Assembly (NCBI GenBank): GCA_963700145.1
Contig: OY969474.1
Coordinates: 2,240,001-2,304,000 of the forward strand
DNA: 64,000 nt
Source of the DNA: an uncultured Acidobacteriota bacterium
GTDB taxonomy: Bacteria > Acidobacteriota > Thermoanaerobaculia > Multivoradales > UBA5704
Direction: 5' to 3'
The translations under genes were made by a program, and so were the position numbers. The notes under the pieces were generated by a model. It made no database searches, was not told the DNA's origin, and saw only the letters and a list, made by a program, of their open reading frames with translations. Below are positions 12,153 to 25,463 of the stretch, in pieces. Each line of letters starts with the position of its first letter. The stretch's first letter is position 1.

Positions 12153-12398
12153 CTACTCGGGGACCTTCTCCAAAGGAATGCCTCGGCCGGCGCGAATGCT
12201 CTGGCGAGCCGCTTCGATCCGCGCCAGGAAACGCGGGTCGGACTGCAGGCGATACTCGAACCAGTCGTCCTCGGACTTGAAGCCGACGAGGACACCGGCG
12301 GGCTTGCCGTGGCGCGTGATGACGATCTCTTCCCCCTCGGCCAAGCGCAAGTAGCGGGAGAGGTCGCCCTTGACGTCGGACAGCGCAACTTTCTTCAT
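12153..12398 (-). CDS. Phd/YefM family antitoxin
   Basis: MKKVALSDVKGDLSRYL..EEIVITRHGKPAGVL; GGGAG RBS. Confidence 0.85.
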   Translation of the reverse strand: MKKVALSDVKGDLSRYLRLAEGEEIVITRHGKPAGVLVGFKSEDDWFEYRLQSDPRFLARIEAARQSIRAGRGIPLEKVPE

Positions 12399-12595
12399 TC
12401 TGATTCTCCCAGCTCCGCGAGCCAAACTGACGCTTGCGACTTGGGCACGGTAGGCGGCAAATCCAAGCCGTTTGACCGGCGAAGCTGCCTGCTCGGCCGG
12501 CGGACCGCTCAGGCAAACCCGCGAGAGAGCGGTTTCCCGGGCGGACCCCGCTGGCCGGCGGGCGGATGGACGGCATTTTCGCCGAAATGGAGCAG

Positions 12596-12787: not shown

Positions 12788-13423
12788 CTACCAGGCGACT
12801 CCCGGGCTCCGCCGCAGATACGCGTCGCTCGTCACCTGGTCGAGCATGAAGGCCGCGACGTCGGCGCGTGCGATCCGCACCGTCCAGAGCCAGTTGCCGA
12901 CCTTCGGCCCGTGCTTGTACTTCCCGCGCGCCGGGCGGTTCCTGAGCACGCCGGGGCGCACGATGACCCAGTCGAGGGCGCTGCCGCGGATCACGCGCTC
13001 CTGGCGGACCTTGTCGTAGAAGTAGAAGGGCAGGATGAAGACCCCGATGAAGAGCGTGTAGTAGAGGCCCATCCGCCCGAAGCTGTCGCCGACGCCGAGC
13101 GCGGTCTCGCAGACCAGCCGGCGCACCCCTTCCCGCTCCATCGCGCGGACCAGGTTGCGGGTCCCCTCGGAAAGGATGCGCGTCGGATAGAACCACCGCT
13201 TGTGCCCGAGGGCGGAGAGGACGGCGTCCTGCCCGCGCACGGCGGCCTCGACCGACGCCGGGTCCAGCACGTCGCCGCGCGTAACGGTCAGGCGCTCGTG
13301 CTGGACGTCGAGCTTGGCGGGCCGCCGCGCGAAGGCCGTCACCTCATGTCCCCGCTCCAGCGCCTGGCGCACCAGCTCGCGGCCCGTCCCGCCGGTCGCC
13401 CCGACGATCAGAAGCTTCGCCAT
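12788..13423 (-). CDS. NAD(P)-binding atypical SDR oxidoreductase
   Basis: GATGGTG Rossmann motif, LDWVIVRPG, IARADVA. Confidence 0.9.
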   Translation of the reverse strand: MAKLLIVGATGGTGRELVRQALERGHEVTAFARRPAKLDVQHERLTVTRGDVLDPASVEAAVRGQDAVLSALGHKRWFYPTRILSEGTRNLVRAMEREGVRRLVCETALGVGDSFGRMGLYYTLFIGVFILPFYFYDKVRQERVIRGSALDWVIVRPGVLRNRPARGKYKHGPKVGNWLWTVRIARADVAAFMLDQVTSDAYLRRSPGVAW

Positions 13424-13487
13424 TGAGAATGCCCTCGCAGCTCGTAGATTAGCCCGTTGATAGAGTCCGCGCGCGGATTTCCCCCTC

Positions 13488-14072
13488 GTGGACGAACCAT
13501 CGCCAGGCAGCGTCACGCGCTTCCTCGTCGCATGGCGCGGCGGAGACGAGCAAGCGCTCGAGCGGTTGCTGCCGCTGGTCTACGGCGAGCTGCGCCGGCT
13601 GGCCGGCCGCTACCTGAACCGGGAGCGGGAGGGCCACACCCTCGAGACCCACGACCTCATCCACGAAGCCTTCCTGCGCCTGGTCGACCAGCGGCAGGTG
13701 GACTGGCGCAATCGTGCCCATTTCTTCGCCATCGCCGCGCAAATGATGCGGCGCATCCTGGTCGATCACGCCCGCCGGCGCGGCTACCGCAAGCACGGCG
13801 GCGACGTGCGGCGGCTGATGCTCGACGACGTGCTCGACGTCGCCGCCGAGCGCGACATGGATCTGGTGGCGCTCGACGACGCGCTGACCGAGCTGGCCCG
13901 GGTCGACCCGGAGCTGGCGAAGGTCGTCGACCTGCGCTTTTTCGGCGGCCTCGACCACGACGAGATCGCCGTCGCGCTCGGCGTCTCCAATCCCACCGTC
14001 CGGCGGCGCTGGCGGGTGGCCAAGGCCTGGCTCTACCGCCGGCTCGCGGGCGAGGAGCCGGATGGCGACTGA
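13488..14072 (+). CDS. ECF sigma factor of the Ser/Thr-kinase-associated type
   Basis: LLPLVYGELRRLA, HTLETHDLIHEAFLRL, WRNRAHFFAIAAQMMRRILVDHAR; overlaps the kinase start. Confidence 0.92.
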   Translation: MDEPSPGSVTRFLVAWRGGDEQALERLLPLVYGELRRLAGRYLNREREGHTLETHDLIHEAFLRLVDQRQVDWRNRAHFFAIAAQMMRRILVDHARRRGYRKHGGDVRRLMLDDVLDVAAERDMDLVALDDALTELARVDPELAKVVDLRFFGGLDHDEIAVALGVSNPTVRRRWRVAKAWLYRRLAGEEPDGD

Positions 14073-16574
14073 GCGCTGGCGCGAGATCGAAGCGCTCTTC
14101 GCCGAGGTCGCGGCGCTGCCGGCCGCGGAGCGCACGCCCCACCTGACGCGCCGCTGCGGCGGCGACGAGGACCTGCGGCGGGAGGTCGAGTCCCTCCTCG
14201 CCGCCGACGCCGCGGCCGGCGACTTCCTCGAGCAGCCGGCGGTGCCGCCCGCCGACGTCTCGCCGCCGCCCTCGGCGGTCGGACGCCGGATCGGTCCCTA
14301 CGCCGTCGAGCGCCTCCTCGGCGCGGGCGGCATGAGCACCGTCTACCTCGCCGTGCGCGCCGACGAGGAGTACCGCCAGCAGGTCGCCATCAAGGTCTTC
14401 GGCTACGGCGCCGACCGCGCCGACTTGGTCGAGCGCTTCCGCGCCGAGCGGCAGATTCTGGCCTCCCTCGACCACCCCAACATCGCCCGCCTGCTCGACG
14501 GCGGCACCACCGAGGACGGGCTGCCGTACCTGGTCATGGAGTACGTCGAGGGCCTCCCCATCGACCGCTACTGCGACGAGCGCGGCCTAGGCCTCGACGC
14601 GCGCATCGACCTCTTCCGCCAGGTCTGCGCGGCGGTGCAGTACGCGCACCAGAAACCTGGTGGTCCATCGCGACATCAAGCCGTCGAACATTCTGGTGAC
14701 CGCCGACGGCGTGCCGCATCTCCTCGACTTCGGGATCGCCAAGCTCCTGGCCGGCAGCTCCCTGCCGCCGGCGGCCGCGGCCACGACGACTGGCCAGCGG
14801 CTGATGACGCCGCACTACGCGAGCCCCGAGCAGGTCGAAGGCCGGCCGGTCAACACCGCGAGCGACGTCTACTCCCTGGGCGTCCTGCTCTACGTGCTGC
14901 TGACCGGCCGCCTGCCCTACCGCTTGGAGGCCGAGCGCGTGGACGCGGTCGAGCGCGCGGTCGTCGAGCAGGAGCCGGAGCGGCCGAGCGCGGCGGTCGC
15001 CGCGCGGACGCTCGCCCGCCGGCTCGCCGGCGACCTCGACAACATCGTGCTGACGGCGCTGCGCAAGGAGCCGGCGCGGCGCTACGCCTCGGTCGAGCTG
15101 CTGGCCGAGGACCTGCGGCGCCACCGCACGGGCCTGCCGGTCCTGGCGCGCCCGGCGACCGTCGGCTACCGGGTGGGCAAGTTCGTGGGCCGCCATCGCC
15201 TGGGGGTCGGCGCCGGTTCTGGACCGGGGCGCGGCCCAGATCACCAACGAGCTCGCGGAGCAGCCGGACGTTCAGGCGGCGCTCGCCGTCACCATTGCCC
15301 GGGCCTACGGCGGCCTCGGCCTCTACGATCGCGCCCAGCCCCTCCTCGAGCGCTCGCTCGCCTTGCGGCGCCGGGTCTTCGGCGCCGCGCACCCGGAGGT
15401 GGCCGAGACGCTCCACGAGCTCGGCGTCCTGCATTGGGCGCGCGGCGAGCTGGACCTCGCCGAGGCCACCCTCCGCCAGGCGCTCGCGATGCGCCGGGCG
15501 CTTCTGGACGCCAGCGACCCCGCGGTGGCCGAAACTCTCAACGCGCTGGGCTTGGTGCTCGTCTTCAAGGCGCGGTTCGACGCCGCCGAGCCGTTGCTCC
15601 GCGAAGCCCTCGCCCTCAATCGCGCGCGGTACGGCGACGACCATGAGGAGGTGGGGAGCAACCTGGTCAATCTCGGCCTCCTGACGAAGCAAAAGGGAGA
15701 CCTCGCCGCGGCCGAAGCCCTCTACCGCGAGGGCCTGGCGATCTTCCGCCGGCTCTTGGGCGGGGCACACCCCCAGGTCGTCATCCAGCTCAACAACCTG
15801 GCGGTGCTGCAATACGAGCGCGGGGACTACGCCGCCGCCGAGGCGAGCTACCGCGAGATGCTGCCCGTGGCGCATCGAGTCTACGGCCGGGAGCACCCCC
15901 AGGTCGCCCTCTACCTCCACAACCTCGCGGCCGTGCTCTCCTGGCGCGGCAAGAACGACGAGGCCGAGCGCCTGGAGCGCGAGTCGCTGGCGATGCGGCG
16001 CAAGCTCCTGGGCGGTGAGCACGAGCAGGTCGGGATGGGCCTCAACATGCTCGCCAAGATCCTGGAGGAGAAGGGCGAGCTCGGCCGCAGCCGGCCGATC
16101 TACGAAGAGTCGCTGCGCATCCAACGCCAGGCCCTCGGCGAGGAGCATCCGCGAGTGGCTGCCGTGCTGGCCAATCTCGCCGGCCTGCTCGCCCAGCAGG
16201 GAGATCCCGCGGCCGCCGAGCCCCTGGCCCGACAGGCCCTCGCCATCCGCCGCCGGGCGCTCGGCGAGGCGCACCCGGACGTCGGGTCCTCGCTCGCGCT
16301 GGTCGGATCGCTCCGGCTCGCCCGCGGCGCACCGGCGGAGGCTGAGCCCCTGCTGCGCCAGGGCCTGGGAGTGCTCCGGGCGGCGCTCTCGGACTCCCAC
16401 TGGCGGACCGCCGAGGCGCAGAGCCTGCTCGGGGAGTGCCTGGCGGCGCGAGGGAAGACGGCGGAGGCCGAGCGGCTCATGACCGCCGGCTACGAGACCC
16501 TGGTGAAGACCCGGGGAGTGGAAAACCCCAAGACCGTGGCCGCGCGTCAACGGCTCGCCAAGCTGAACGGTTGA
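14062..16574 (+). pseudogene. Ser/Thr protein kinase with C-terminal TPR repeats, disrupted twice
   Basis: GAGGMSTV, VAIK, HRDIKPSN, DFGIAK, YASPEQ and many LG..HP TPR repeats, spread over three frames. +1 A at ~14653 and a frame-changing junction at ~15215. Confidence 0.85.
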
Positions 16575-16622
16575 TCACTTTCGCCGCGGTTTCCCGCGTT
16601 AGGGGCGAAAGGAGACCGATCC

Positions 16623-16679
16623 ATGAAGACCAAGACCCACGTCAAGGCCGGCGGTATCACGGCGTCCGGCGCCGACTAG
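16623..16679 (+). CDS. peptide precursor MKTKTHVKAGG-ITASGAD
   Basis: Manual translation; AAAGGAGA RBS at 16608-16615; leader paralogous to the four minus-strand peptides. Confidence 0.85.
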   Translation: MKTKTHVKAGGITASGAD

Positions 16680-16755
16680 GCTCCCGAGAGCCGGCAGGAA
16701 GGTTTCGAGGAGGGGCGGAGGCGCGCTCGCGCCGCCGCGCTCGCCCATCGGACAG

Positions 16756-16806
16756 TCAGTCGGTGAGCAGCCTGCCGCCGGCCTTGACGGTCGTCTTGAC
16801 ACGCAT
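16756..16806 (-). CDS. peptide precursor MRVKTTVKAGG-RLLTD
   Basis: Manual translation; GGGAGGTGAT Shine-Dalgarno. Confidence 0.88.
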   Translation of the reverse strand: MRVKTTVKAGGRLLTD

Positions 16807-16855
16807 CGCGATCACCTCCCTTCGCTTGGATTCCAGGCAGCGTTCCGCCGCCGGG

Positions 16856-16906
16856 TCAGTCGCTGAGCAGCACGCCTCCGGCCTTGACGGTCGTCTTGAC
16901 ACGCAT
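16856..16906 (-). CDS. peptide precursor MRVKTTVKAGG-VLLSD
   Basis: Manual translation; GGGAGGTGAT Shine-Dalgarno. Confidence 0.88.
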   Translation of the reverse strand: MRVKTTVKAGGVLLSD

Positions 16907-16958
16907 CGTGATCACCTCCCTTCGCCAGGTTTTTCCTCACAACGTCTTTCGCCGCGGA

Positions 16959-17009
16959 TCAGTCGCCGAAGATGATGCCTCCGGCCTTGACGGTCGTCTT
17001 GACACGCAT
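16959..17009 (-). CDS. peptide precursor MRVKTTVKAGG-IIFGD
   Basis: Manual translation; GGGAGGT Shine-Dalgarno. Confidence 0.88.
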   Translation of the reverse strand: MRVKTTVKAGGIIFGD

Positions 17010-17058
17010 CGCATTTACCTCCCTTCGCAAGGACTCCAGGCAGCGTTTCGCCGCCGGA

Positions 17059-17109
17059 TCAGTCGCCGATGAGCACGCCTCCGGCCTTGACGGTCGTCTT
17101 GACACGCAT
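17059..17109 (-). CDS. peptide precursor MRVKTTVKAGG-VLIGD
   Basis: Manual translation; GGGAGGTGAT Shine-Dalgarno. Confidence 0.88.
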   Translation of the reverse strand: MRVKTTVKAGGVLIGD

Positions 17110-17191
17110 CGCGGATCACCTCCCCTCCGCCCAGATTTTTCGATCGCTGATCCCTGAGTCCCCGCGGGACCGGAATCCGTTCAATCCGGCC

Positions 17192-19321
17192 CTACGGGTG
17201 GGCGATGACGAGGAGCGTCGGCGCGCGCCGCAGGACGCAGGAGAGCGCCTGCCGCAGGCTCTCCGGGTCGAGGGCGGCGAAGCTCTCGTCGAGGACGACC
17301 AGCTCGGCCTTCTGGAGCAGCGCGCGGGCGATGTAGAGCCGGCTCTTCTCGCCGTGCGAGAGCTGCCAGCCCGACTCGCCGACCATCTGCAGCAGGCCGG
17401 CGGGCATGCGGTCGAGGACGTCGCCGAGCCCCAGCTCGCGGCAGACCGCCTCGGCCTCCTCGACGTCGCCCGGCCGCGGCGGCCAAGCGCGGCCCATCAG
17501 CAGGTTGAAGGCGAAGGTGTCGGTCAGGACGTGGTTCTCCTGGAACTGCGGCGCCGCCACCGCCCGCCGCCGCCACCCCTCGGCGCCGAGCGAGTGCCGG
17601 TCCAGGCCGTCGAGCAGCAGCAGCCCCGACTGCGGCAGGCGCAGGCCGGTGAGCAGCGCGGCGAGCGTCGATTTGCCGCCGCCCGAAGGCCCTTCGAGCA
17701 GCAGCCGCTCGCCCTGCCGCACCGCCAGCGAGGCGCCGGCAACGGCGAGGTCGGCGCGCTCGCCGTAGCGGAAGCCGAGGTCGTGCGCCTCGAGGACGAC
17801 CCGCGAGCCGCCGGCGCCTGCCTGCGCCATCGGGATCAAGGCCGCTCCCGGCGCCGACGCCTCGGAGCGCGCGGCGGCGCGGAAGATCGGCGCCACCTGG
17901 TCCCACGCCACCGCCGCCTCCGACAGGTCGGCCAGCCCGCGGACCATCTTCCACAGCGCCCAGTACGCGAAGAGGGCGCCGCCCAAGGCGACGGCGAGGC
18001 TCCCCGACGACGCCGTGCCGGCGACGAACGGCCGGGCGAGCGCGAGGAGGCTCACCAGCAGCCAGCCGCGCGGCACCAGCACCCGCAGCAGCGCCGCCCG
18101 CCGGTCGAGTTCCGCCGAGAGGTCGAGGTAGCGCTCCAGCTCGCCGTCCTCGCGCTCGTGCCAGCGCTCGGCGCTCTGCTGCGCCAGGCGCGTGCGGTGC
18201 CCGACCATCTGCTCGACCAGGTCGTGCGTCATCTCCAGCCGGGCCGCGGTCCAGACGCGCCTTTGCTCGAGGTACCGCCAGCCGAGCCAGAGCGCGAAGG
18301 CGACCCAGGCGAGGAGCGAGAGGGCGTGCGGCCAGCCCCCGGCGCCGGCGGCGAGGACCGGCAGCGCGAGGAGGACCTCGGCGAAGGTGATCACGCCGAC
18401 GTGCGCCCCGGTCAGCGCCAGGAACTCCAGGGCCTCGGCGTTCAGGATGCGGCCGAGGAGCTGGCCGGCGCCCTGGTGGCGCGTCTCCTCGGGCGCCATG
18501 CGCAGGGCGCCCACCAGCAACCGGCGCTTGAAGAGCCGCCCGGCGCGCGCCATCAGCACGCCCGCCGACCAGAGCTCCAGGGCGCGGAACGGGATGACGG
18601 TCAGCTGCAGCAGCACCCAGGCGGTGACCCAGGCGGGATCGAGCCGCCCCCGGAGGACGCCGAGGCCTAGCACCCACCACGACAGGAGGAGCAGCGCGTG
18701 CTGCGCCATGTGCGCGCCGACCAGGACGGCGGCGCGCCCCGGCAGCCCTGCCCGCCGCGCCGCCGCCCAGAAGCTGCCGCCGGGCGGCAGGTCGAGGAGC
18801 CAACAGCCGCCGATCCGCCGCTCGGCGAGCCGCTCGGCGAGGAGCGCCTCGCGCGCCCGCTCCCGCCGGCGCGGCGGCACCGCCGCCTCGTCGAGCAGGC
18901 GGTCCACCTCGGGGCCGAGGCCGGCGTCGAGATCGCCGCGCAGCGCATCGCGCAGCGCGGCCACCGAGACCCGCCGCGGGCGATGATCGCGGCCGAGCAC
19001 GCGGACCTGCCGGCGGCCGCCGGCGAGGAGGGCGAGGAAGCCGCCCGCGGCCCCCGGCAGGCGGAGCAGCGCCGGCGCGGCGTGGCCGACCAGCGCCGCT
19101 ACCTCGCCGTAGGCGGCCTCGACGGGCTCGGCCTCGAGCCCCATCGCCGCCGCCGCGGCGCCGATCCAGCGGTCCAGCTCCTCGACCGAGACCTCCGGGG
19201 GCGGCTCCGGCAGGTCGAGCTTGCCGGGTGCGAGCCCGGCGGCGCGGGCCAGGGCGGAGAGCGCCTCGCCGAGCCGATCGGCCGGCCAGACGAGCGCGTC
19301 GAGGTCGGGCCGCGCCTTCAC
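17192..19321 (-). CDS. ABC exporter subunit (TMD+NBD) with degenerate peptidase-like N-terminus
   Basis: GTG at 19321 overlaps the upstream stop; GPSGGGKST, LSHGEKSR, VVLDESF, IAHP. Confidence 0.9.
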   Translation of the reverse strand: MKARPDLDALVWPADRLGEALSALARAAGLAPGKLDLPEPPPEVSVEELDRWIGAAAAAMGLEAEPVEAAYGEVAALVGHAAPALLRLPGAAGGFLALLAGGRRQVRVLGRDHRPRRVSVAALRDALRGDLDAGLGPEVDRLLDEAAVPPRRRERAREALLAERLAERRIGGCWLLDLPPGGSFWAAARRAGLPGRAAVLVGAHMAQHALLLLSWWVLGLGVLRGRLDPAWVTAWVLLQLTVIPFRALELWSAGVLMARAGRLFKRRLLVGALRMAPEETRHQGAGQLLGRILNAEALEFLALTGAHVGVITFAEVLLALPVLAAGAGGWPHALSLLAWVAFALWLGWRYLEQRRVWTAARLEMTHDLVEQMVGHRTRLAQQSAERWHEREDGELERYLDLSAELDRRAALLRVLVPRGWLLVSLLALARPFVAGTASSGSLAVALGGALFAYWALWKMVRGLADLSEAAVAWDQVAPIFRAAARSEASAPGAALIPMAQAGAGGSRVVLEAHDLGFRYGERADLAVAGASLAVRQGERLLLEGPSGGGKSTLAALLTGLRLPQSGLLLLDGLDRHSLGAEGWRRRAVAAPQFQENHVLTDTFAFNLLMGRAWPPRPGDVEEAEAVCRELGLGDVLDRMPAGLLQMVGESGWQLSHGEKSRLYIARALLQKAELVVLDESFAALDPESLRQALSCVLRRAPTLLVIAHP

Positions 19322-22023
19322 CCTTCCTCCGCCTCGGTCAAGCGGCCGCGCTCCATCCGCAGCCGCCGCCAGACCGTGCTCTGCCAGAGCCCCGACCGCA
19401 CGTCGCCTTCGGCGGCCAGGAGCGCGGCGTAGCGCGACCCCGGTTGCGCGGCGAGGCGCTCGGGCGGGCCGTCCTCGACGATGCGGCCGTTCTCGACGAC
19501 GAGGGCGCGCGCGAAGCCCAGCGTCTCGCCGACGTCGTGGGTGACGCAGAGCAGCGTCGCGCCCTGCCAGAGACGGCGGGCCCGCGCCAGCAGCTCGCGC
19601 CGCTGCTCGCGGTCGAGACCGCGGAACGGCTCGTCGAGAAGGACCAGGCGCACCCCGGGCCGCAGCAGCGCGCGCGCCAGGCGCACTCGCTGGCCCTCGC
19701 CGCCGGAGACCAGGCCGCCGCCTTCGCCGAGCGGCGTCTGCAGGCCCTCCGGCAGCTTGCGCAGCACGGCCACCAGGTCGGCGGCGCCGATCGCCTGGTC
19801 GAGCGGCAGGCCGAGGCCCTCTGCCGCGCCGTAGCGGAGGTTTTCGAGCAGCGGCCGGTTCCAGAGCTGCACCGCCGGATCGACCCAGGCGGTCTCGCGG
19901 CGCAGCGCCTGCAGCCGCTCGCCGCCGAGCGGCTCGCCGTCCACCAGCACGCGGCCCGCGGCCGGCCGGTGCCAGCCGAGGAGAGTCCCGAGGAGGCTCG
20001 ACTTGCCGGCGCCGGAGGGGCCGACGATGGCGACGTGCTCGCCGGGCGCGATCGCGGCGCCGATGCCGGCGAGGATCGTGTGCCCGCCGGCGCGCACGCC
20101 GACGTCCTCCCAGACGATGCCGGCGGCGGGCGCGGGCGACGACGTCAGAGAAGACGGCGCGGCGGCGTGCGGTCCGGCCTCCTCGGCCTCCTCCGGCGCG
20201 CCGAGCGGCTCGAGCAGGCGCAGGGCGACGTTGCGGTGCGAGGGGTACTGGGTGGCGATCGCCAGGATCAGCATCTGCCCGAGGCTCAGGACCTTGAGCC
20301 CCCAGTAGACGAGCAGCAGGATGCCGCCGTCGAGCCCGCGGCGGGCGAGGTGATCGACGAGCAGGACGATCACCATCGAGACCATGGCGATCTGCACCGC
20401 CGTGTCCGCCGCCACCTCGGCGCGGCGCAGGTGGAGGTAAGAGCGCCCCCACTCGACGAGCAGCCCCTCGTGCTGCCGCCGCACCGCCGTCTGCGCGCCG
20501 TGGGTGCGGATCGGGAAGAGGCCGAGGAGCGCGTCGAGGTAGAAGCGCGACAGTGCGCCGGCGTGGTTGCGCACCCGCAGGTCCCACTCCTCGAGCCGCG
20601 GCAGCAGCACGAGCGGCACGCCGACCGCCAGCGCCGCAGCGACGGCGACGACCAGGAGGCTCCCCGGGTCGAGCCAGACGATGCCGGCCAGGGTGAAGAG
20701 CAGCTCGCAGGCGGTGCGCACGAACCACTCGCCGAGGTCGGGCACCAGGCGGAGGCGGTGGACGCCGTGGCTGCGGTCGGCCATGTCGGAGGTCAGGCGG
20801 CTCTGGAAGTAGCGGTCGCCCAAGCGCGGCACCTTGCGCAGGAAGGCCATCCGCAGCCGCGCCTCGAGGTGCCGCCCCAGACGCTGCGCGCCGCGCACGA
20901 TCGGCAGGTCGAGGAGGAGGAAGAGGGCGACGACGGCGAACAGCATGCCGAGCGCCGCGGCCCGCTGGGCGCCGAGCCCAAGCGCCCGCGGCAGGTCGAA
21001 GAAGGCGCGGAAGAGGAGCGCCTCGACGACGACCCCGAGGCCGGCGACCAGCAGCGCCAGCGCCAGCGCGCCCGGCGCGAAGCGGCCGCCGGCGGCGAGC
21101 AGGCGGAGCAGCTCGCGGCCCGGCCGCGCCGGCGGCTCGGCGAGGGCGGCCGCCAGCTCGGGCGAGAGCGGGCTCGGCGCGGCGGCTGCGGCATCGGACT
21201 CCGGTCCGCGGCGGCCGCGGACGCGCACCAGGACGGCGCCGCGCAAGAGCACCTGCTCCTCGCCGTCCGCGCCCGGCGGGCCGGGCCGCACGGACCACCA
21301 GGCCTCGGGCACGGCCTCTGTCGCCGTCTCTCCACCGTCGCGGCAGCGAGCGAGCAGTGAGCGCAGCAGTCGCCCGGCCTCGCCGCCTTTGGCGAGCCCG
21401 CCCGCGGCGACGAGTGAACGGGTCATGCGCACGCAAGCGTCGAGCGCGGCGAGCGCGCGCCAGCCGGGATCGGCCAGTGCCGCCGCCAGCAGCTCGCCGG
21501 CCTCGGCGTCCGAGATGCCGAGCTCGCCCAGGAACGCCCGCTGAACGTCGAGGAAGTCGGCCGAGCCGGCCCATTCGCGGAAGGCCGCCGCCGGCACCGC
21601 CTGCCGGTGGCGGTAGAGCTCGCCGAGGAGCCGGCGCGCCGTCGTCCAACGGCGCCCGGTGGCCGGGTCCATCACCTGGACGAGCGGGCCGTGGCGGCGC
21701 CAGACGACGATGAAGTGGGTCAGCCCGCTCGGGTGGCGGACGACGACGATCGCCGGCAGGTTGTGCGCCGCCGGCGCCAGCAGGTGGTCCGCCGGCACCA
21801 CGACCTGCTCGGCCTCCAGGCCGAGCTGCGCCGCGACCTCCTCCATGGTGTCGATCGAGGTGCCGTCGAGATCGATCTGGCAGGCCTCGCGCAGGCGGCC
21901 GTAGCTCACCGGGATGGCGAAGCCTTCGAGCAGCGACTTGAGGGTCGCCGGCCCGCAGTCCATGGCCGAGGTCTGGACGACCTCGGGGGCGAGGAAGGAG
22001 CGGCGGTCCGGCGGGCGGGACAT
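19318..22023 (-). CDS. peptidase-containing ABC transporter (C39 domain + TMD + NBD)
   Basis: QTSAMDCGPA (catalytic Cys), HFIVV, VMDPA; GPSGAGKSS, VSGGEGQR, LLDEP; ATG at 22023. Confidence 0.93.
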   Translation of the reverse strand: MSRPPDRRSFLAPEVVQTSAMDCGPATLKSLLEGFAIPVSYGRLREACQIDLDGTSIDTMEEVAAQLGLEAEQVVVPADHLLAPAAHNLPAIVVVRHPSGLTHFIVVWRRHGPLVQVMDPATGRRWTTARRLLGELYRHRQAVPAAAFREWAGSADFLDVQRAFLGELGISDAEAGELLAAALADPGWRALAALDACVRMTRSLVAAGGLAKGGEAGRLLRSLLARCRDGGETATEAVPEAWWSVRPGPPGADGEEQVLLRGAVLVRVRGRRGPESDAAAAAPSPLSPELAAALAEPPARPGRELLRLLAAGGRFAPGALALALLVAGLGVVVEALLFRAFFDLPRALGLGAQRAAALGMLFAVVALFLLLDLPIVRGAQRLGRHLEARLRMAFLRKVPRLGDRYFQSRLTSDMADRSHGVHRLRLVPDLGEWFVRTACELLFTLAGIVWLDPGSLLVVAVAAALAVGVPLVLLPRLEEWDLRVRNHAGALSRFYLDALLGLFPIRTHGAQTAVRRQHEGLLVEWGRSYLHLRRAEVAADTAVQIAMVSMVIVLLVDHLARRGLDGGILLLVYWGLKVLSLGQMLILAIATQYPSHRNVALRLLEPLGAPEEAEEAGPHAAAPSSLTSSPAPAAGIVWEDVGVRAGGHTILAGIGAAIAPGEHVAIVGPSGAGKSSLLGTLLGWHRPAAGRVLVDGEPLGGERLQALRRETAWVDPAVQLWNRPLLENLRYGAAEGLGLPLDQAIGAADLVAVLRKLPEGLQTPLGEGGGLVSGGEGQRVRLARALLRPGVRLVLLDEPFRGLDREQRRELLARARRLWQGATLLCVTHDVGETLGFARALVVENGRIVEDGPPERLAAQPGSRYAALLAAEGDVRSGLWQSTVWRRLRMERGRLTEAEEG

Positions 22024-22031
22024 GCGGGCGG

Positions 22032-23198
22032 CTAGTCGGCGGCGGCGGGGCGGTCGAAGACCTTGCCGACCGTGCGCAGGACGAGGACGGCGGGCGCCAC
22101 CCGCTCGACCTCCACCTCCGCCGTGCCCGGCAGGCCGTGCTGCAGCGGCAGCCGGGAGCGGCGGTCCGGCCGCAGGGCGAGCTCGACGCGGATGCGCCCG
22201 TCGCGCGGCTCGCTGGCGACGCGGGCGACGCGCGCGGCCAAGTGCCCGTACTGCGCCGAGGGGAAGCCACTCAGGACGATCCGCGCCGGCTGCCGCGGCC
22301 GGATCCGGCCGAGGGCGGAGGCGGGCGCGAACTCGGCGATCCCCTTGAGGTCGCCCGCCGGCACCACCATCCCGAGCTGCTCGCCGGCGGCGACGACCGA
22401 GCCGACCCGCACCGCCGCGATCTCCGCGACGCGGCCGGCGACTGGCGCTCGGATCGCGCGCAATCCGACGTCGCGCTCCAGGCGCCGGACGGCGGCGCCG
22501 GCGGCGGCGGCCTGCCCGGCGAGCAGCGCCAGCTCGCGCTCCAGCTCGTCGACGTCGCCGCGCCGCTCGCCCTCGGTGCTCCGCTCCTCGTAGCCGAGGC
22601 GGTCGAGGGTGCGGCGCAGGGCATCGGCGGCGGCGCGCCGCTGCTCGGCCGCCGAGCGCGCCCTCTCCGCCTCGGCCGCCGGCACCAGCCCCTGGGCGAG
22701 GAGGCGCTCCTGCCGGTCGGCCTCCTGCTGCGCCAGCCGCGCCGCGGCCTCCGCCTCCCGGGTCTTGGCGAGCGTCTCCTCGATGCCGGCGCGGGAGGCG
22801 CCGAGCCGGCCGGCCAGCGACCGCCCGCCGGCCGCGATCTGCTGGCGCAGAGCGGCGATCTGCCCGGCGAGAGCGTCCCGCCGCGCCCGCTCCTCGTCGA
22901 GCCGCGCCCGCGGCTCCTCCGCCTCCAGCTCGATCAGGACTTGGCCCTGGCGCACCCGCTGCCCGAGCGCCGCCCGCACCGCCGCCACCCGCCCCTCGAC
23001 CGGCGCCGCCAGCGGATGCGCCTCGCGCCCCACCGCCAGCCAGGCGCGGTCCGTGACCTCGTACACCGACACCCGCCCGCGCACGAACCACACCCCCCAG
23101 GCGCCGAGCAGCAACAGCGCCGGCACCAACCCGGCGATCCACCGCCGGTGGCCGTCAACCTCAAGGGCGCGCAACGTGCGCGAGAACGGGCTGGGCAT
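22032..23198 (-). CDS. HlyD family membrane fusion protein
   Basis: N-terminal TM, APVEGRV and IRAPVAGRV half-lipoyl motifs, long coiled coil. Confidence 0.9.
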   Translation of the reverse strand: MPSPFSRTLRALEVDGHRRWIAGLVPALLLLGAWGVWFVRGRVSVYEVTDRAWLAVGREAHPLAAPVEGRVAAVRAALGQRVRQGQVLIELEAEEPRARLDEERARRDALAGQIAALRQQIAAGGRSLAGRLGASRAGIEETLAKTREAEAAARLAQQEADRQERLLAQGLVPAAEAERARSAAEQRRAAADALRRTLDRLGYEERSTEGERRGDVDELERELALLAGQAAAAGAAVRRLERDVGLRAIRAPVAGRVAEIAAVRVGSVVAAGEQLGMVVPAGDLKGIAEFAPASALGRIRPRQPARIVLSGFPSAQYGHLAARVARVASEPRDGRIRVELALRPDRRSRLPLQHGLPGTAEVEVERVAPAVLVLRTVGKVFDRPAAAD

Positions 23199-23275
23199 GC
23201 GAGTGCGGCAGCGTAGCACCGGCCAAGGTCAGCCCTTCGAGTCACCGCTCGTCGTGGGACGGCTCCAGAGAAGAA

Positions 23276-23304
23276 TTGACCGCTTCGACGCGCGAGAATA
23301 GACT
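23276..23304 (+). promoter_or_regulatory. sigma70-like promoter
   Basis: TTGACC-N17-TAGACT upstream of ATG 23355. Confidence 0.6.
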
Positions 23305-23354
23305 TGGCTATCCGTTGTCGTCATCGTCGCGTGCGCACACGCCGGGAGGCTCAC

Positions 23355-25463
23355 ATGATCTTGGTCAAGACGTCGCATCGCCGCGGCCTGTTTGCGTCGG
23401 CATGTGTGATCGCGTGTTTCTCGCTTGGCGGCATCGCGCTCGCGGGCGAGATTGATGGCGACATCGCCAACACGAACCCGATCAGTTGCGGAAGCAACCC
23501 GGCCGCCTCGATCGTCAAGGTGTGCAACACCGTGAAGAAGGTCTTTTCCTCGATCACCTGTCCGAGCGATAAGAATTCGTGTGTCAAGCCAAAGCGGGAG
23601 ATCTTCACAGGCCTGACCGTCGAGGGCGCGACGCCCACCAATATCAAGCCGTGGAACGGACAAGGCGGCGGCGGCGAGGTTTTCCAACTGGTCGGCGTCT
23701 GCTTGATGCGCGACCTGGCCGTCACACCCATGAAGTCGCATGCGGAGGCGACCATTGAGGTCGGGCTGACAAGCGCGACGGTCTCTGCGGACGGCCTCGT
23801 CTCTTACGGGAGGTTCGACAAGACCGATCTGACCAAACTGCGCTTCGAGGGCTTCCACAGCTTGCGCGCGCATGCGCCGATCATCGGCGACATCGACATT
23901 TTCACGCAGCCCTTCTCGCTGCAGACGGTCTCGCAGTCCCTCCAGGGCCAAGGGTTGAAGGTCGGCGGCTACGACGTCTATGGCGCACAGGCGCTCGAGC
24001 TCGAAGCGGTGGGCGGAGCCCAGAGGTTCGACTTCGCCCTCGATGCCATCAAGATCGTGACGCCCTACGGGACGATCTCGCCCCAGCCCCATGTCGGATT
24101 CGCGCAGGTCCTCGGCTGGAGCATGTCGCCCTATGGCGGCGCCAGCACGATGCTGCTCAATCCGGGCGCGTACCAAGTCACCGACGTCTATGGCCGCCTG
24201 GGCGGACAGAAGGTCGCGAGCGGCCTCAACGTCGTCAAGACGACAAGCGGCCCTGGCGGGCCGGGCTGCATCCCCGTCCAAATCAGTCCCGACAAGATCT
24301 GCCCCAATCCGGTTGGTTGGGACAGCCAAGTTCTCCTCGGCTCGCGCAACGTCAACCTCGATACGTCCATTGCGGTGAACACGCCTTGGACAGCGCCGCC
24401 CGGCGTCGCCTTTCCGGATCGGCCGGACGCCCAACCGCAGCGCGCACGCGGCGATGCCGAGAAGACACCCGGCGGTGCTGCGTCGGCCGGTATCAAGATC
24501 GAATACACGCCGCCCATTCCGCTGCCGGAGATACCGGCCCCTGTCGCGTTGACGGCGAAGCTGAGCGTGTTCGTCGATCCCAATATCGTCGTGCTCTACG
24601 GAAGCCAGTACAATCTGTGGAACGGACAAGTCGGCACATGGCTGCCTGGAGGCGTGCCGTTCGGCGCGCCGACCTTGGGTACGCCGGTCGACGTGCAAAG
24701 CCTACAGAGCATGGCGATCTATGCCGCCTCGACGGTCTATGGCCGCTTCGCGCTCGATGCCGGGGTCGACATCGTGCTCCACGTGCACATCACGCTGCCC
24801 AAGGTGTGCAGCCCCTTCGACTCCGACGAGTGCTGGCCGGACGACATCGACTTCGACATTGTCGATCTCCATCCGCGTACGGCGTTTCTGGAGAGCAAAG
24901 CCGGTGACACGGAGCCTTCGGAGCAAGCCGCCTTTGCGCTCGTCGACTCGCAAAACTTCGTCAAGACCCAGAAACTCTTCAGTATCTTCACACCGCTGAA
25001 TGGCACGCCCACCGACGGCGTCGCCTACATCGAGCAGTGCCTGAAGCAGGATGCGCCGGCGGCGCAAGATCCGCCCGAGAATCCCTACGTTCCGGGCGAT
25101 CCCCAAGCCCTCGTTGAAGTGATCGAGATGCCCTGCAATGTCTGCCTCGGCATGCCGGACATCAAGTATCAATACCCTCTCGAGTGGGACCCGGTCACCG
25201 CCCACGTGACGAAGTCGGAGACCCGCACGCAGGAAGGCTTCGGCATCAAGCAGCTGCCAGAGGTGACAGACGGGCTTGAGCCGGGTGATCAATGGCTATG
25301 CGCCTGGGTCCCGCAACTCGAGCGGGTCGTGAACTTGGGCTGCTACGACCAATGCCGGGTCAACAAGGCGACCAACACGTTCACGGTGATCGCCTCCGCC
25401 AAGACACTTTGGGCAGAAGGCAAGTTCACCGGCGAATCGTTGCCGCCCCACGGCTGCCTCTAA
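23355..25463 (+). CDS. secreted Cys-rich hypothetical protein
   Basis: GGGAGG RBS; signal peptide ending ALA; 16 Cys in the mature part; visibly lower GC. Confidence 0.8.
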   Translation: MILVKTSHRRGLFASACVIACFSLGGIALAGEIDGDIANTNPISCGSNPAASIVKVCNTVKKVFSSITCPSDKNSCVKPKREIFTGLTVEGATPTNIKPWNGQGGGGEVFQLVGVCLMRDLAVTPMKSHAEATIEVGLTSATVSADGLVSYGRFDKTDLTKLRFEGFHSLRAHAPIIGDIDIFTQPFSLQTVSQSLQGQGLKVGGYDVYGAQALELEAVGGAQRFDFALDAIKIVTPYGTISPQPHVGFAQVLGWSMSPYGGASTMLLNPGAYQVTDVYGRLGGQKVASGLNVVKTTSGPGGPGCIPVQISPDKICPNPVGWDSQVLLGSRNVNLDTSIAVNTPWTAPPGVAFPDRPDAQPQRARGDAEKTPGGAASAGIKIEYTPPIPLPEIPAPVALTAKLSVFVDPNIVVLYGSQYNLWNGQVGTWLPGGVPFGAPTLGTPVDVQSLQSMAIYAASTVYGRFALDAGVDIVLHVHITLPKVCSPFDSDECWPDDIDFDIVDLHPRTAFLESKAGDTEPSEQAAFALVDSQNFVKTQKLFSIFTPLNGTPTDGVAYIEQCLKQDAPAAQDPPENPYVPGDPQALVEVIEMPCNVCLGMPDIKYQYPLEWDPVTAHVTKSETRTQEGFGIKQLPEVTDGLEPGDQWLCAWVPQLERVVNLGCYDQCRVNKATNTFTVIASAKTLWAEGKFTGESLPPHGCL

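Follow-up and report, generated by a model that had tools for sequence, protein, structure and literature searches.

A micro-peptide family with a dedicated C39-type exporter and repeated linkage to Hanks-kinase switches points to secreted-peptide signalling or competition in Acidobacteriota and other bacteria

What is the role of five micro-genes, each encoding 16 or 18 amino acids (aa), that lie between a putative peptide exporter and a sigma factor-kinase pair? The question is raised by a DNA stretch of 64,000 nucleotides (hereafter the window, meaning this whole stretch) from an uncultured Acidobacteriota bacterium of the Thermoanaerobaculia (assembly GCA_963700145.1, contig OY969474.1, positions 2,240,001 to 2,304,000). 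Two operons converge in it. The minus-strand operon encodes an HlyD-type adaptor, an ATP-binding cassette (ABC) transporter that contains a peptidase domain (PCAT), a second ABC half-transporter (ABC2) and four of the peptides; the plus-strand operon encodes an extracytoplasmic function (ECF) sigma factor, a Ser/Thr kinase with tetratricopeptide repeats (TPR) and the fifth peptide. An initial annotation had read this arrangement as a pheromone circuit, in which unmodified peptides of 5-7 aa are exported and sensed by the TPR ectodomain, which activates the sigma factor. Comparison with other genomes points to a secreted-peptide signalling or competition system. At the level of sequence comparison it is well supported that this family of peptides, the exporter dedicated to it and the recurrent links to Hanks-kinase switches go beyond chance.

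The peptide family takes the form of a head, M[KR]xKTxVKAG(G), followed by a hypervariable tail of 4-9 aa. The exact pattern was found five times in the window against 0.00 expected (100 shuffles), and a scan of the rest of the 5.46-Mb genome returned no further match. The four class-A peptides share the head MRVKTTVKAGG and end in VLIGD, IIFGD, VLLSD or RLLTD. The fifth paralogue, referred to as class B, is present downstream of the kinase-TPR gene as the initial annotation had it, and is 18 aa long, not 16. In a collection of species-representative genomes, more than 126 stretches from several phyla match the exact pattern. According to the record titles, they originate from Acidobacteriota (Blastocatellia, Pyrinomonadaceae, Thermoanaerobaculia, Holophagales, Bryobacterales and Acidobacteriia) as well as from Pirellulaceae, Planctomycetaceae, Chloroflexota, Rhodothermales, Acidimicrobiia, a Nannocystaceae isolate and delta-, beta- and gammaproteobacterial metagenome-assembled genomes (MAGs). 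Four matches in Bathyarchaeota, all located inside ribosomal-protein operons, are false positives, and a few pattern matches open long unrelated open reading frames (ORFs). In a second genome set of 41 relatives, used for the peptide pattern and the exporter peptidase, five genomes contain the exact pattern. A reversed control pattern gave 0 matches in all 41 relatives and in all 50 peptide-bearing genomes introduced below.

Among 166 unique instances, 112 encode 20 aa or fewer, and these short peptides display 91 distinct tails, mostly of 5-8 aa, an arrangement of conserved leader and hypervariable core. A single genome (G060) contains up to 12 pattern matches. The family also occurs in a multi-repeat form, (xxNHNQTxxRGLKVKTxVKAG)n, of 40-160 aa (for example at loci L085, L036, L078 and L097), which has 1276 homologues in a protein collection derived from metagenomes. 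Among the 120 homologues listed, those that carry a name are called 'hypothetical protein' except for one 'CxxC motif-containing protein', and no Pfam domain describing the family was found. NCBIfam and Pfam scans were applied to 14 longer members, peptides below 20 aa being outside their scope, and no curated cut-off was reached. An Rfam scan gave no match up to E = 1, and no description of the family was found in the literature covered, which leaves out subscription journals and supplements. The family is undescribed in the libraries searched. A Shine-Dalgarno (SD)-like motif lies at a fitting distance upstream of 155 of the 166 instances (background 16%), and the amino acid pattern is kept despite synonymous codon changes across phyla; we infer from these sequence features that the peptides are translated.

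The PCAT of the window carries a C39 peptidase domain (PF03412, 67.1 bits, cut-off 22) in which the Gln, Cys, His and Asp motifs are kept, the catalytic motifs QTSAMDCG, THF and DP being visible in the translation, and it matches the PCAT1 chain 4ry2 at 2.9e-33. The N-terminus of ABC2 shows a weak alignment with this C39 domain (32% identity over 87 aa, E = 5e-4); its C39-like domain is degenerate, with Gly at the position of the catalytic His. Against the NHLP transporter trio TIGR03794, TIGR03796 and TIGR03797, scores of 46.4, 157.6 and 105.6 were obtained at cut-offs of 156.2, 853.3 and 709.4, and the exporter is also far below the bacteriocin_ABC cut-off. Because its scores are so far below the thresholds of these families, the exporter is, as judged from the models, a PCAT subfamily of its own.

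Gene neighbourhoods were compared at 65 peptide loci from 50 genomes, each fetched with up to 10 kb per side. The 50 genomes, many of which are incomplete MAGs, are part of the 62 distinct genomes behind loci L021-L100; several of the 12 that were dropped had exporter or kinase neighbours. An exporter component (an orthologue of HlyD, of ABC2, or of the C39 domain or body of the PCAT) lies within 10 kb in 28 of the 65 loci compared to about 0.5 expected, and a C39 orthologue (57-85% identity, usually single-copy) is encoded in 39 of the 50 genomes. Of 20 exporter loci without adjoining peptides, one of which ended at a contig end, 19 had ABC2 next to PCAT and following it, and 18 contained HlyD. 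In the 41 relatives, a C39 orthologue was detected in 7 of 8 genomes with a relaxed peptide pattern and in 7 of 33 without it (Fisher p = 0.001, for genomes that are related and not independent). One exception is G010, which has peptides and no C39 orthologue; two C39 matches were found in the window's own genome. Cleavage and export of the peptides by the PCAT appear likely.

The surroundings of the peptide genes are further marked by regulators. When all ORFs up to 6 kb away from the 65 loci were clustered without bias, ABC transporters ranked first (25 of 50 genomes), followed by kinase/TPR proteins (23 genomes, with a kinase domain in 15) and HlyD (19); ECF sigma factors and an FHA-sigma54 activator came below these top three, and no recurrent tailoring-enzyme or immunity-like cluster emerged within that distance. 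A kinase is encoded within 5 kb in 16 of the loci. Nine loci, from 7 of 50 genomes, have at a distance of up to 5 kb an ECF sigma factor of the TIGR02999 type, which we take to be equivalent to group ECF43; 0.9 would be expected from per-genome counts (P ~5e-7). The co-occurrence of peptide loci with PCAT and ECF genes, proposed as a check by the initial annotation, is thereby borne out on both sides. In the window's own genome four TIGR02999 sigma factors score above the cut-off, and each is followed by a Hanks kinase gene, the adjacency typical of ECF43; by this count, the assumption that such pairs are numerous does not hold for this genome. Only the pair of the window touches a peptide/PCAT locus, and none of the micro-ORFs after the other three pairs resembles the peptide family.

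The same elements recur elsewhere in several arrangements. The order ECF-kinase-peptide on one strand is also found in G062, G076 and G051 (L185, L163 and L164), and kinase-then-peptide in G043 and G041 (L156 and L157). The ECF sigma gene found beside the peptides in Pirellulaceae is of a different type; it is divergent to the peptide genes and has a kinase gene after it. Peptides with QISNI tails stand beside kinases and an FHA-sigma54 activator in a deltaproteobacterial MAG, and in G090 an ECF-kinase pair with a CHASE2 sensor is divergent from a peptide-HlyD-PCAT-ABC2 operon. Functional coupling of the peptides to the kinase/sigma switch is, on balance, favoured by such comparisons. As a separate observation, loci L198, L201 and L202 of G060 contain arrays of 2-4 near-identical peptides with the tails QISNI, QISTI and QITNI adjoining Ser/Thr kinases; the arrays of L198 and L202 also adjoin an FHA-sigma54 enhancer-binding protein, the same kinase link with a different transcriptional output.

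A tree of 43 ECF sigma factors, from which high-scoring segment pairs covering fewer than 140 query residues had been dropped, sorts the linked sigma factors into two groups. Its 20 controls were the best-scoring distant ECF sigma factors of the same or similar genomes and not a random sample. Clade A comprises the window genus and G062 (support 96/95) and goes with 'xxxxGAD' tails encoded right after the kinase-TPR gene; clade B comprises 10 rows (support 99/93), 8 of them linked and 2 at 6-9 kb from a peptide, and goes with NHNQT repeats. None of the 20 controls falls inside either clade, and the label 'linked' needs five changes on the tree, where shuffled labels needed 12.0 on average and none of 500 shuffles came as low. 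The distant linked sigma factors had been considered as orthologues of the window sigma factor; this was rejected, as their identity to it is 43-56% versus 47-59% for the controls and they form a separate clade.

Table 1. Genes of the peptide locus, with positions counted from the first nucleotide of the window
Feature	Position	Strand	Evidence
ECF sigma factor	13488-14072	+	TIGR02999 217.4 bits (cut-off 126.15); PF07638 1.8e-57
Ser/Thr kinase with TPR repeats, disrupted	14062-16574	+	Pkinase; TPR_10 1.7e-73; TPR_12 7.4e-73
Class-B micro-peptide MKTKTHVKAGGITASGAD, 18 aa	16623-16679	+	Pattern match; AAGGAG ribosome-binding site upstream
Four class-A micro-peptide genes in tandem, 16 aa each	16756-17109	-	Own GGAGG site each
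Class-A ORFs, individually	17109-17059, 17009-16959, 16906-16856, 16806-16756	-	
ABC2, second ABC half-transporter	17192-19321	-	ABC_tran 3e-20
PCAT	19318-22023	-	Peptidase_C39 1.8e-18; ABC_tran 3.5e-22
HlyD membrane-fusion (adaptor) protein, first gene of the exporter operon	22032-23219	-	HlyD_3 7.8e-16; Biotin_lipoyl_2 7.1e-08

The genes of the locus (Table 1) were chosen by family matches together with codon-position G+C content, because the regional G+C is 70-80%. Every component listed by the initial annotation is in its place, except that the kinase-TPR gene is not intact. The stop of the ECF gene overlaps the start of the kinase gene by 11 nt, and the class-B gene begins 49 nt past the kinase-TPR stop on the same strand; it also directly follows the kinase-TPR gene in G003, G004 and G062. 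In the exporter operon, the start of ABC2 overlaps the stop of PCAT, and HlyD reaches 78.4 bits with TIGR01843, which is under the cut-off of that model. All five peptide ORFs have a GGAGG-type ribosome-binding site 6-8 nt upstream. The class-A array has a tandem period of 100 bp and 3.5 copies. In a contig of a related strain (run X4), position 16810 is joined to 17153 with 40 other letters between, and that strain therefore has fewer class-A copies, which indicates that the array varies in copy number between strains. A sigma-70-like promoter match is located at 13423-13450, upstream of the ECF gene; inspection by eye revealed no convincing ECF-type promoter shared by the upstream regions of the ECF gene, HlyD and the peptide genes.

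In agreement with the initial annotation, which saw no enzyme for tailoring a peptide made by ribosomes and modified after translation (RiPP), a Pfam scan recognized no tailoring enzyme in the ~10 kb that flank the locus on each side. The neighbours in the window comprise CarB, a PALP enzyme, DUF1428, an NAD-binding protein, a 719-aa protein, a PEP-mutase-family enzyme, fumarase and DinB. The 719-aa ORF (23304-25463, plus strand) has a signal-peptide-like N-terminus and no Pfam or NCBIfam match. It is probably a recent insertion, because its G+C content of about 62-67% is lower than the 70-80% around it and it has no counterpart upstream of HlyD in G004, a genome of the same genus. On the other side, at 12153-12400 (minus strand), the C-terminal part of a long spurious-looking ORF, which contains the sequence MKKVALSDVKGDLSRYLR, reads like a small antitoxin, presumably of the Phd/YefM type.

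How might these parts work together? The exporter operon with its four class-A genes would provide the 16-aa precursors and the machine handling them. The head would serve as the leader for export, to be cut off at or next to KAG(G) by the PCAT's C39 domain, and the PCAT/ABC2 pair and HlyD would expel the unmodified tails of 5-7 aa. The second operon would be the regulatory arm: the kinase of relatives with an intact gene, anchored in the membrane and exposing its TPR domain to the exterior, would control the sigma factor, which in turn would drive its own operon including the peptide gene. If the exported peptide were perceived by the ectodomain, an autoinducing loop would result, a counterpart of the ComC/ComAB/ComDE circuit in which a Hanks kinase and an ECF sigma factor form the regulatory part. 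The whole explanation, with signalling as its preferred reading, is tentative and is held with somewhat less than even confidence. Within it, the peptide as a ligand of the TPR ectodomain is a doubtful step, and the full autoinducer loop of the initial annotation shares that doubt. The wider claim, an undescribed pheromone quorum sensing of soil diderms based on unmodified 5-7-aa peptides that a dedicated heterodimeric PCAT would release from an 11-aa KTxVKAGG head, a periplasmic Hanks-kinase ectodomain as their reader and an ECF output driving the peptide operon, must at present be called unlikely. It would extend over Acidobacteriota and possibly Planctomycetota, Chloroflexota and others, with tails and ectodomains co-diversifying into pherotypes; if true, receptor-dead strains like that of the window would be natural signal-blind variants.

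The design of the proposed receptor can be read from two genomes of the same genus, in which the kinase-TPR protein is intact (900 aa in G004, 899 aa in G003). It consists of an N-terminal segment (1-78), the kinase (79-372), a hydrophobic helix (~380-403) and the TPR repeats (453-900). Since one helix separates kinase and TPR in the intact proteins, the TPR domain of these relatives is predicted to be extracytoplasmic. Between G003 and G004 the ectodomain is 82.6% and the kinase domain 95.6% identical, and their peptide tails differ; the exporter proteins of the window and G004 are 96.7-97.7% identical. The faster divergence of the ectodomain is a weak argument for a receptor role, because sensor domains often evolve faster anyway.

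Several observations weigh against the autoinducing loop. In the window the kinase gene is broken: positions 1-117 and 120-259 of the Pkinase model match in different frames, and the TPR_10/TPR_12 repeats are in a third. An extra A (+1) near 14653 shifts the kinase frame immediately ahead of the HRD catalytic loop. A further ~190 bp (about 64 codons) are deleted at ~15214/15215; this deletion, recognized by comparison with the intact orthologues of G004 and G003, removes exactly the single membrane helix and the juxtamembrane segment. The functional sigma-phosphorylating kinase that belongs to an ECF43-type system is missing from this genome. As the kinase is frameshifted and its membrane helix is lost, the loop is cut, and by its sequence the kinase arm cannot work here. 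A contig of the public run X1, which may be the source sample, spans 14531-14870 with 0 differences, and the extra A is therefore present in the X1 reads; X1 contigs leave 14982-15660, and with it the deletion junction, uncovered. Contigs of related strains from runs X2 and X3 lack the extra A and continue past 15215 into helix-coding sequence. The lesions look recent, because the TPR frame still contains no stop codon.

The leader and the sigma factor also deviate from precedent. The head of 11 aa is basic and does not have the make-up of canonical double-glycine leaders, which form an amphipathic helix of some 13 residues or more, end in GG, GA or GS and carry hydrophobic residues at -4, -7 and -12 (LahT150 paper, available part). 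A cut after GG would place Lys at -4 and Thr at -7; a cut after KAG would place Val at -4 and Ala-Gly at -2/-1. Next to HlyD in G037, G026, G013 and G022, KAG-L is found instead of KAG-G, and because of these variants the invariant core of the family is, in the sequences compared, KTxVKAG, with a second Gly that is not strict. Sigma region 2.2 of the window sigma factor and of its orthologues in G003, G004 and G062 reads HTLETHDLIHEAF, whereas most of the other 39 aligned TIGR02999 sigma factors contain HTLQ[TP]TALV, Q[TP]TA or a close variant. In ECF43 sigma factors this region holds an uncharged QTTA-type motif with a phospho-acceptor Thr, and activation is achieved by cognate Hanks kinases, as in the PknS-EcfK and PknT-EcfP pairs (PMC13147305, available part). 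Clade A, with ETHD in place of the Q[TP]TA phospho-switch motif, departs from this type. Its sigma factors may be less dependent on phosphorylation, because the acidic E..D resembles the DxxD of kinase-independent ECF sigma factors.

The comparative data add further points to this side. The ECF linkage covers only 9 of the 65 loci, and neither exporter nor kinase is nearby in 25 of them, just 4 of which are below 8 kb. With every first-look ECF candidate as the background, the expectation rises to 5.0 and P becomes 0.07. For a pheromone, it is unusual that one genome encodes four to five different tails. The sensor domains of the adjacent kinases vary as well. TPR is found in the window genus, G062, G076, G065, G066 and G082, CHASE2 in G090, an FGE-sulfatase domain in G087 and G060 (with nSTAND1 also in G087) and a beta-propeller in G042. 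This diversity fits kinases regulating peptide output better than one shared peptide receptor.

Finally, TPR proteins without a kinase accompany the peptides in other lineages. A well-conserved orthologous family of stand-alone TPR proteins of ~380-450 aa adjoins the peptides or lies directly upstream of HlyD at no fewer than nine loci (L170, L165, L178, L226, L227, L228, L232, L171 and L209) in Blastocatellia, other Acidobacteriota and a betaproteobacterial MAG. Because it has neither a signal peptide nor a membrane helix, it is probably cytoplasmic. In G010, a 337-aa ORF (L019, 9017-10027, minus strand) joins the peptide head and an NHNQT tail, within one reading frame, to a TPR_12 protein that belongs to the stand-alone family, either as a natural fusion or by loss of a stop codon. 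The probable cytoplasmic location and this in-frame fusion together suggest an intracellular TPR-peptide contact. Since sensors vary from lineage to lineage and a cytoplasmic location is probable for some TPR partners, perception of the peptide by the TPR ectodomain can only be called possible. The circuit reading of the initial annotation thus stands as regards the linkage to exporter, kinase and sigma factor, and its TPR-sensing step has been weakened by the broken kinase, the varied sensors and the cytoplasmic TPR proteins.

The closest rival to pheromone signalling is a regulated library of secreted effectors, a possible but unlikely reading in which the peptides are no signal. They would be molecules of competition or interference, bacteriocin-like or RiPP-like with tailoring enzymes encoded elsewhere, and the kinase/ECF or FHA-sigma54 modules would merely time their production according to other cues. 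A conserved head with 91 distinct tails among 112 short peptides and several paralogues per genome, up to 12 in G060, agrees with such a library, corresponds to the leader-core layout of RiPP precursors and recalls combinatorial precursor families such as the prochlorosins. The peptide genes are often unlinked to the single exporter, the adjacent kinases have diverse sensor domains, and the divergent layout of G090 is a classic regulator-and-target arrangement. Pseudomonadales members located beside HpaB-type and Rieske oxygenases and SnoaL proteins also fit. Against effectors speaks the size of the unmodified tails, because known unmodified bacteriocins and class II microcins are far longer than 5-7 aa. 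The 6-kb surroundings of the 65 loci contained no recurrent tailoring-enzyme or immunity-like cluster, and the ~10 kb around the window locus no recognized tailoring enzyme; moreover, in several lineages the peptide gene is part of the sigma-kinase operon, as in autoinducer operons. The Pseudomonadales loci merit a description of their own. Tails of the FSWSN, FTWSN or FSWSR type are encoded beside HlyD and a C39 PCAT at L030, L041, L050, L061, L070 and L210 (Pseudomonadales and gammaproteobacterial MAGs). L030 and L041 also adjoin an HpaB-type flavin monooxygenase and Rieske oxygenase, SnoaL and RidA proteins, which could be tailoring enzymes for the Trp-containing tail.

An improbable alternative is that the peptides act inside the cell, before or without export, on a TPR protein serving as chaperone, escort or regulator. 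In that case the binding partner of the conserved head, or of the NHNQT-type tail, would be a cytoplasmic TPR protein, and the kinase-fused TPR would have been derived from the same binding module. The nine loci with the stand-alone TPR family and the G010 fusion can be explained in this way. However, a ligand confined to the cell interior would have no need of a dedicated exporter, and the TPR domain of the kinase follows a single membrane helix and is predicted to be outside. The ectodomain of the clade-B kinases is unrelated to the stand-alone family, and that of clade A shares only generic TPR_12 similarity with it. With the query used, no orthologue of the stand-alone family was found in the window's own genome, the best match being 33% identical inside an open frame of 1874 aa.

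Less probable still is a location of the ECF-kinase pair next to the peptide/PCAT locus by chance or inherited synteny, with no functional link. Conservation of the whole locus within the genus is shared descent and not independent evidence, exporter and peptides occur without ECF or kinase genes in the searched flanks of G019 (10 kb on each side) and G067 (about 10 kb downstream of the peptides, the exporter side ending ~2 kb away at a contig end), and the enrichment is marginal under the most conservative background. Coincidence would nevertheless have to explain why one of only four such pairs in 5.46 Mb ends 49 nt from a peptide gene, why 9 loci are linked where 0.9 were expected, why the linked sigma factors form two clades without any control, and why in other phyla the peptides are linked, independently, to different ECF types and to kinase/FHA-sigma54 regulators. 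That the micro-ORFs, very short as they are, represent repeats, RNA elements or attenuator leaders instead of translated peptides is scarcely credible in view of the amino acid pattern that survives synonymous codon changes across phyla, the frequent SD-like motifs, the empty Rfam scan, the multi-repeat forms that hold frame over 40-160 aa and their 1276 homologues annotated as proteins.

Signalling between cells by peptides is characteristic of Gram-positive bacteria, whereas diderms offer, to our knowledge, few convincing examples. Acidobacteriota and Planctomycetota, common in soil and hard to grow, are rich in ECF/Hanks-kinase pairs with unknown input signals. For some of these pairs, the peptide family with its own exporter provides a first concrete candidate for the input or the output, and direct testing is possible because the peptides are short enough for synthesis. 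Even if they were molecules of competition, their head would be a novel leader type of very small size for export by PCATs, and the family would add a large group of hidden micro-genes that escape gene callers.

Among known systems, the ComC-ComAB-ComDE and BlpC-BlpAB-BlpRH circuits resemble the window locus in three respects. They combine a small precursor whose head ends in Gly-Gly, a C39-peptidase ABC exporter with an accessory protein, and an operon that unites a peptide gene, a membrane-bound sensor kinase and the transcription factor controlled by this kinase. They differ in their histidine kinase and response regulator, where the window has a Hanks-type Ser/Thr kinase with TPR and an ECF sigma output. 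The window head is 11 aa long, basic and without the hydrophobic pattern at -4/-7/-12, its tails are 5-7 aa, its host is a diderm, its exporter has a second ABC subunit and its circuit is a proposed one. An HlyD adaptor and a PCAT are shared with the CvaAB system of class II microcins and with NHLP/Nif11 systems, and the three-gene layout with a second ABC protein is that of the NHLP type. The substrates in those systems, however, are 60-100 aa compared to 16-18 aa, and the window peptides carry no nitrile-hydratase-like or Nif11-like leader.

On the regulatory side, the EcfK-PknS pair of Xanthomonas citri and the EcfP-PknT pair of Vibrio parahaemolyticus also consist of an ECF gene followed by a transmembrane Hanks kinase with an extracytoplasmic sensor (PMC13147305). 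In the available part of that source, no peptide ligand or PCAT is described for them, and their sigma region 2.2 carries QTTA where the window sigma factor has ETHD (PMC13147305). Unmodified peptides of 5-8 aa and TPR-type repeats are the features that the RRNPP systems (Rap/Phr, NprR/NprX, PlcR/PapR and Rgg/SHP) share with the proposed circuit. RRNPP receptors, in contrast, are cytoplasmic and need re-import of the peptide, whereas the TPR domain of the intact kinase is predicted to lie outside the membrane, and the export route differs too. The combination of a cytoplasmic TPR with a helix-turn-helix (HTH) or phosphatase domain that characterizes RRNPP receptors is absent, as no HTH or phosphatase domain appeared in the window scan; only the stand-alone TPR partners of other lineages resemble these receptors in location. 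A diderm precedent is offered by Nostoc, where the very short peptide PatS acts in cell-cell patterning. Its partner HetC is a PCAT-type exporter (PMC10986499, available part), and the pair thus parallels the window locus in a short peptide and a PCAT within a diderm host, with a different peptide sequence, taxon and receptor logic.

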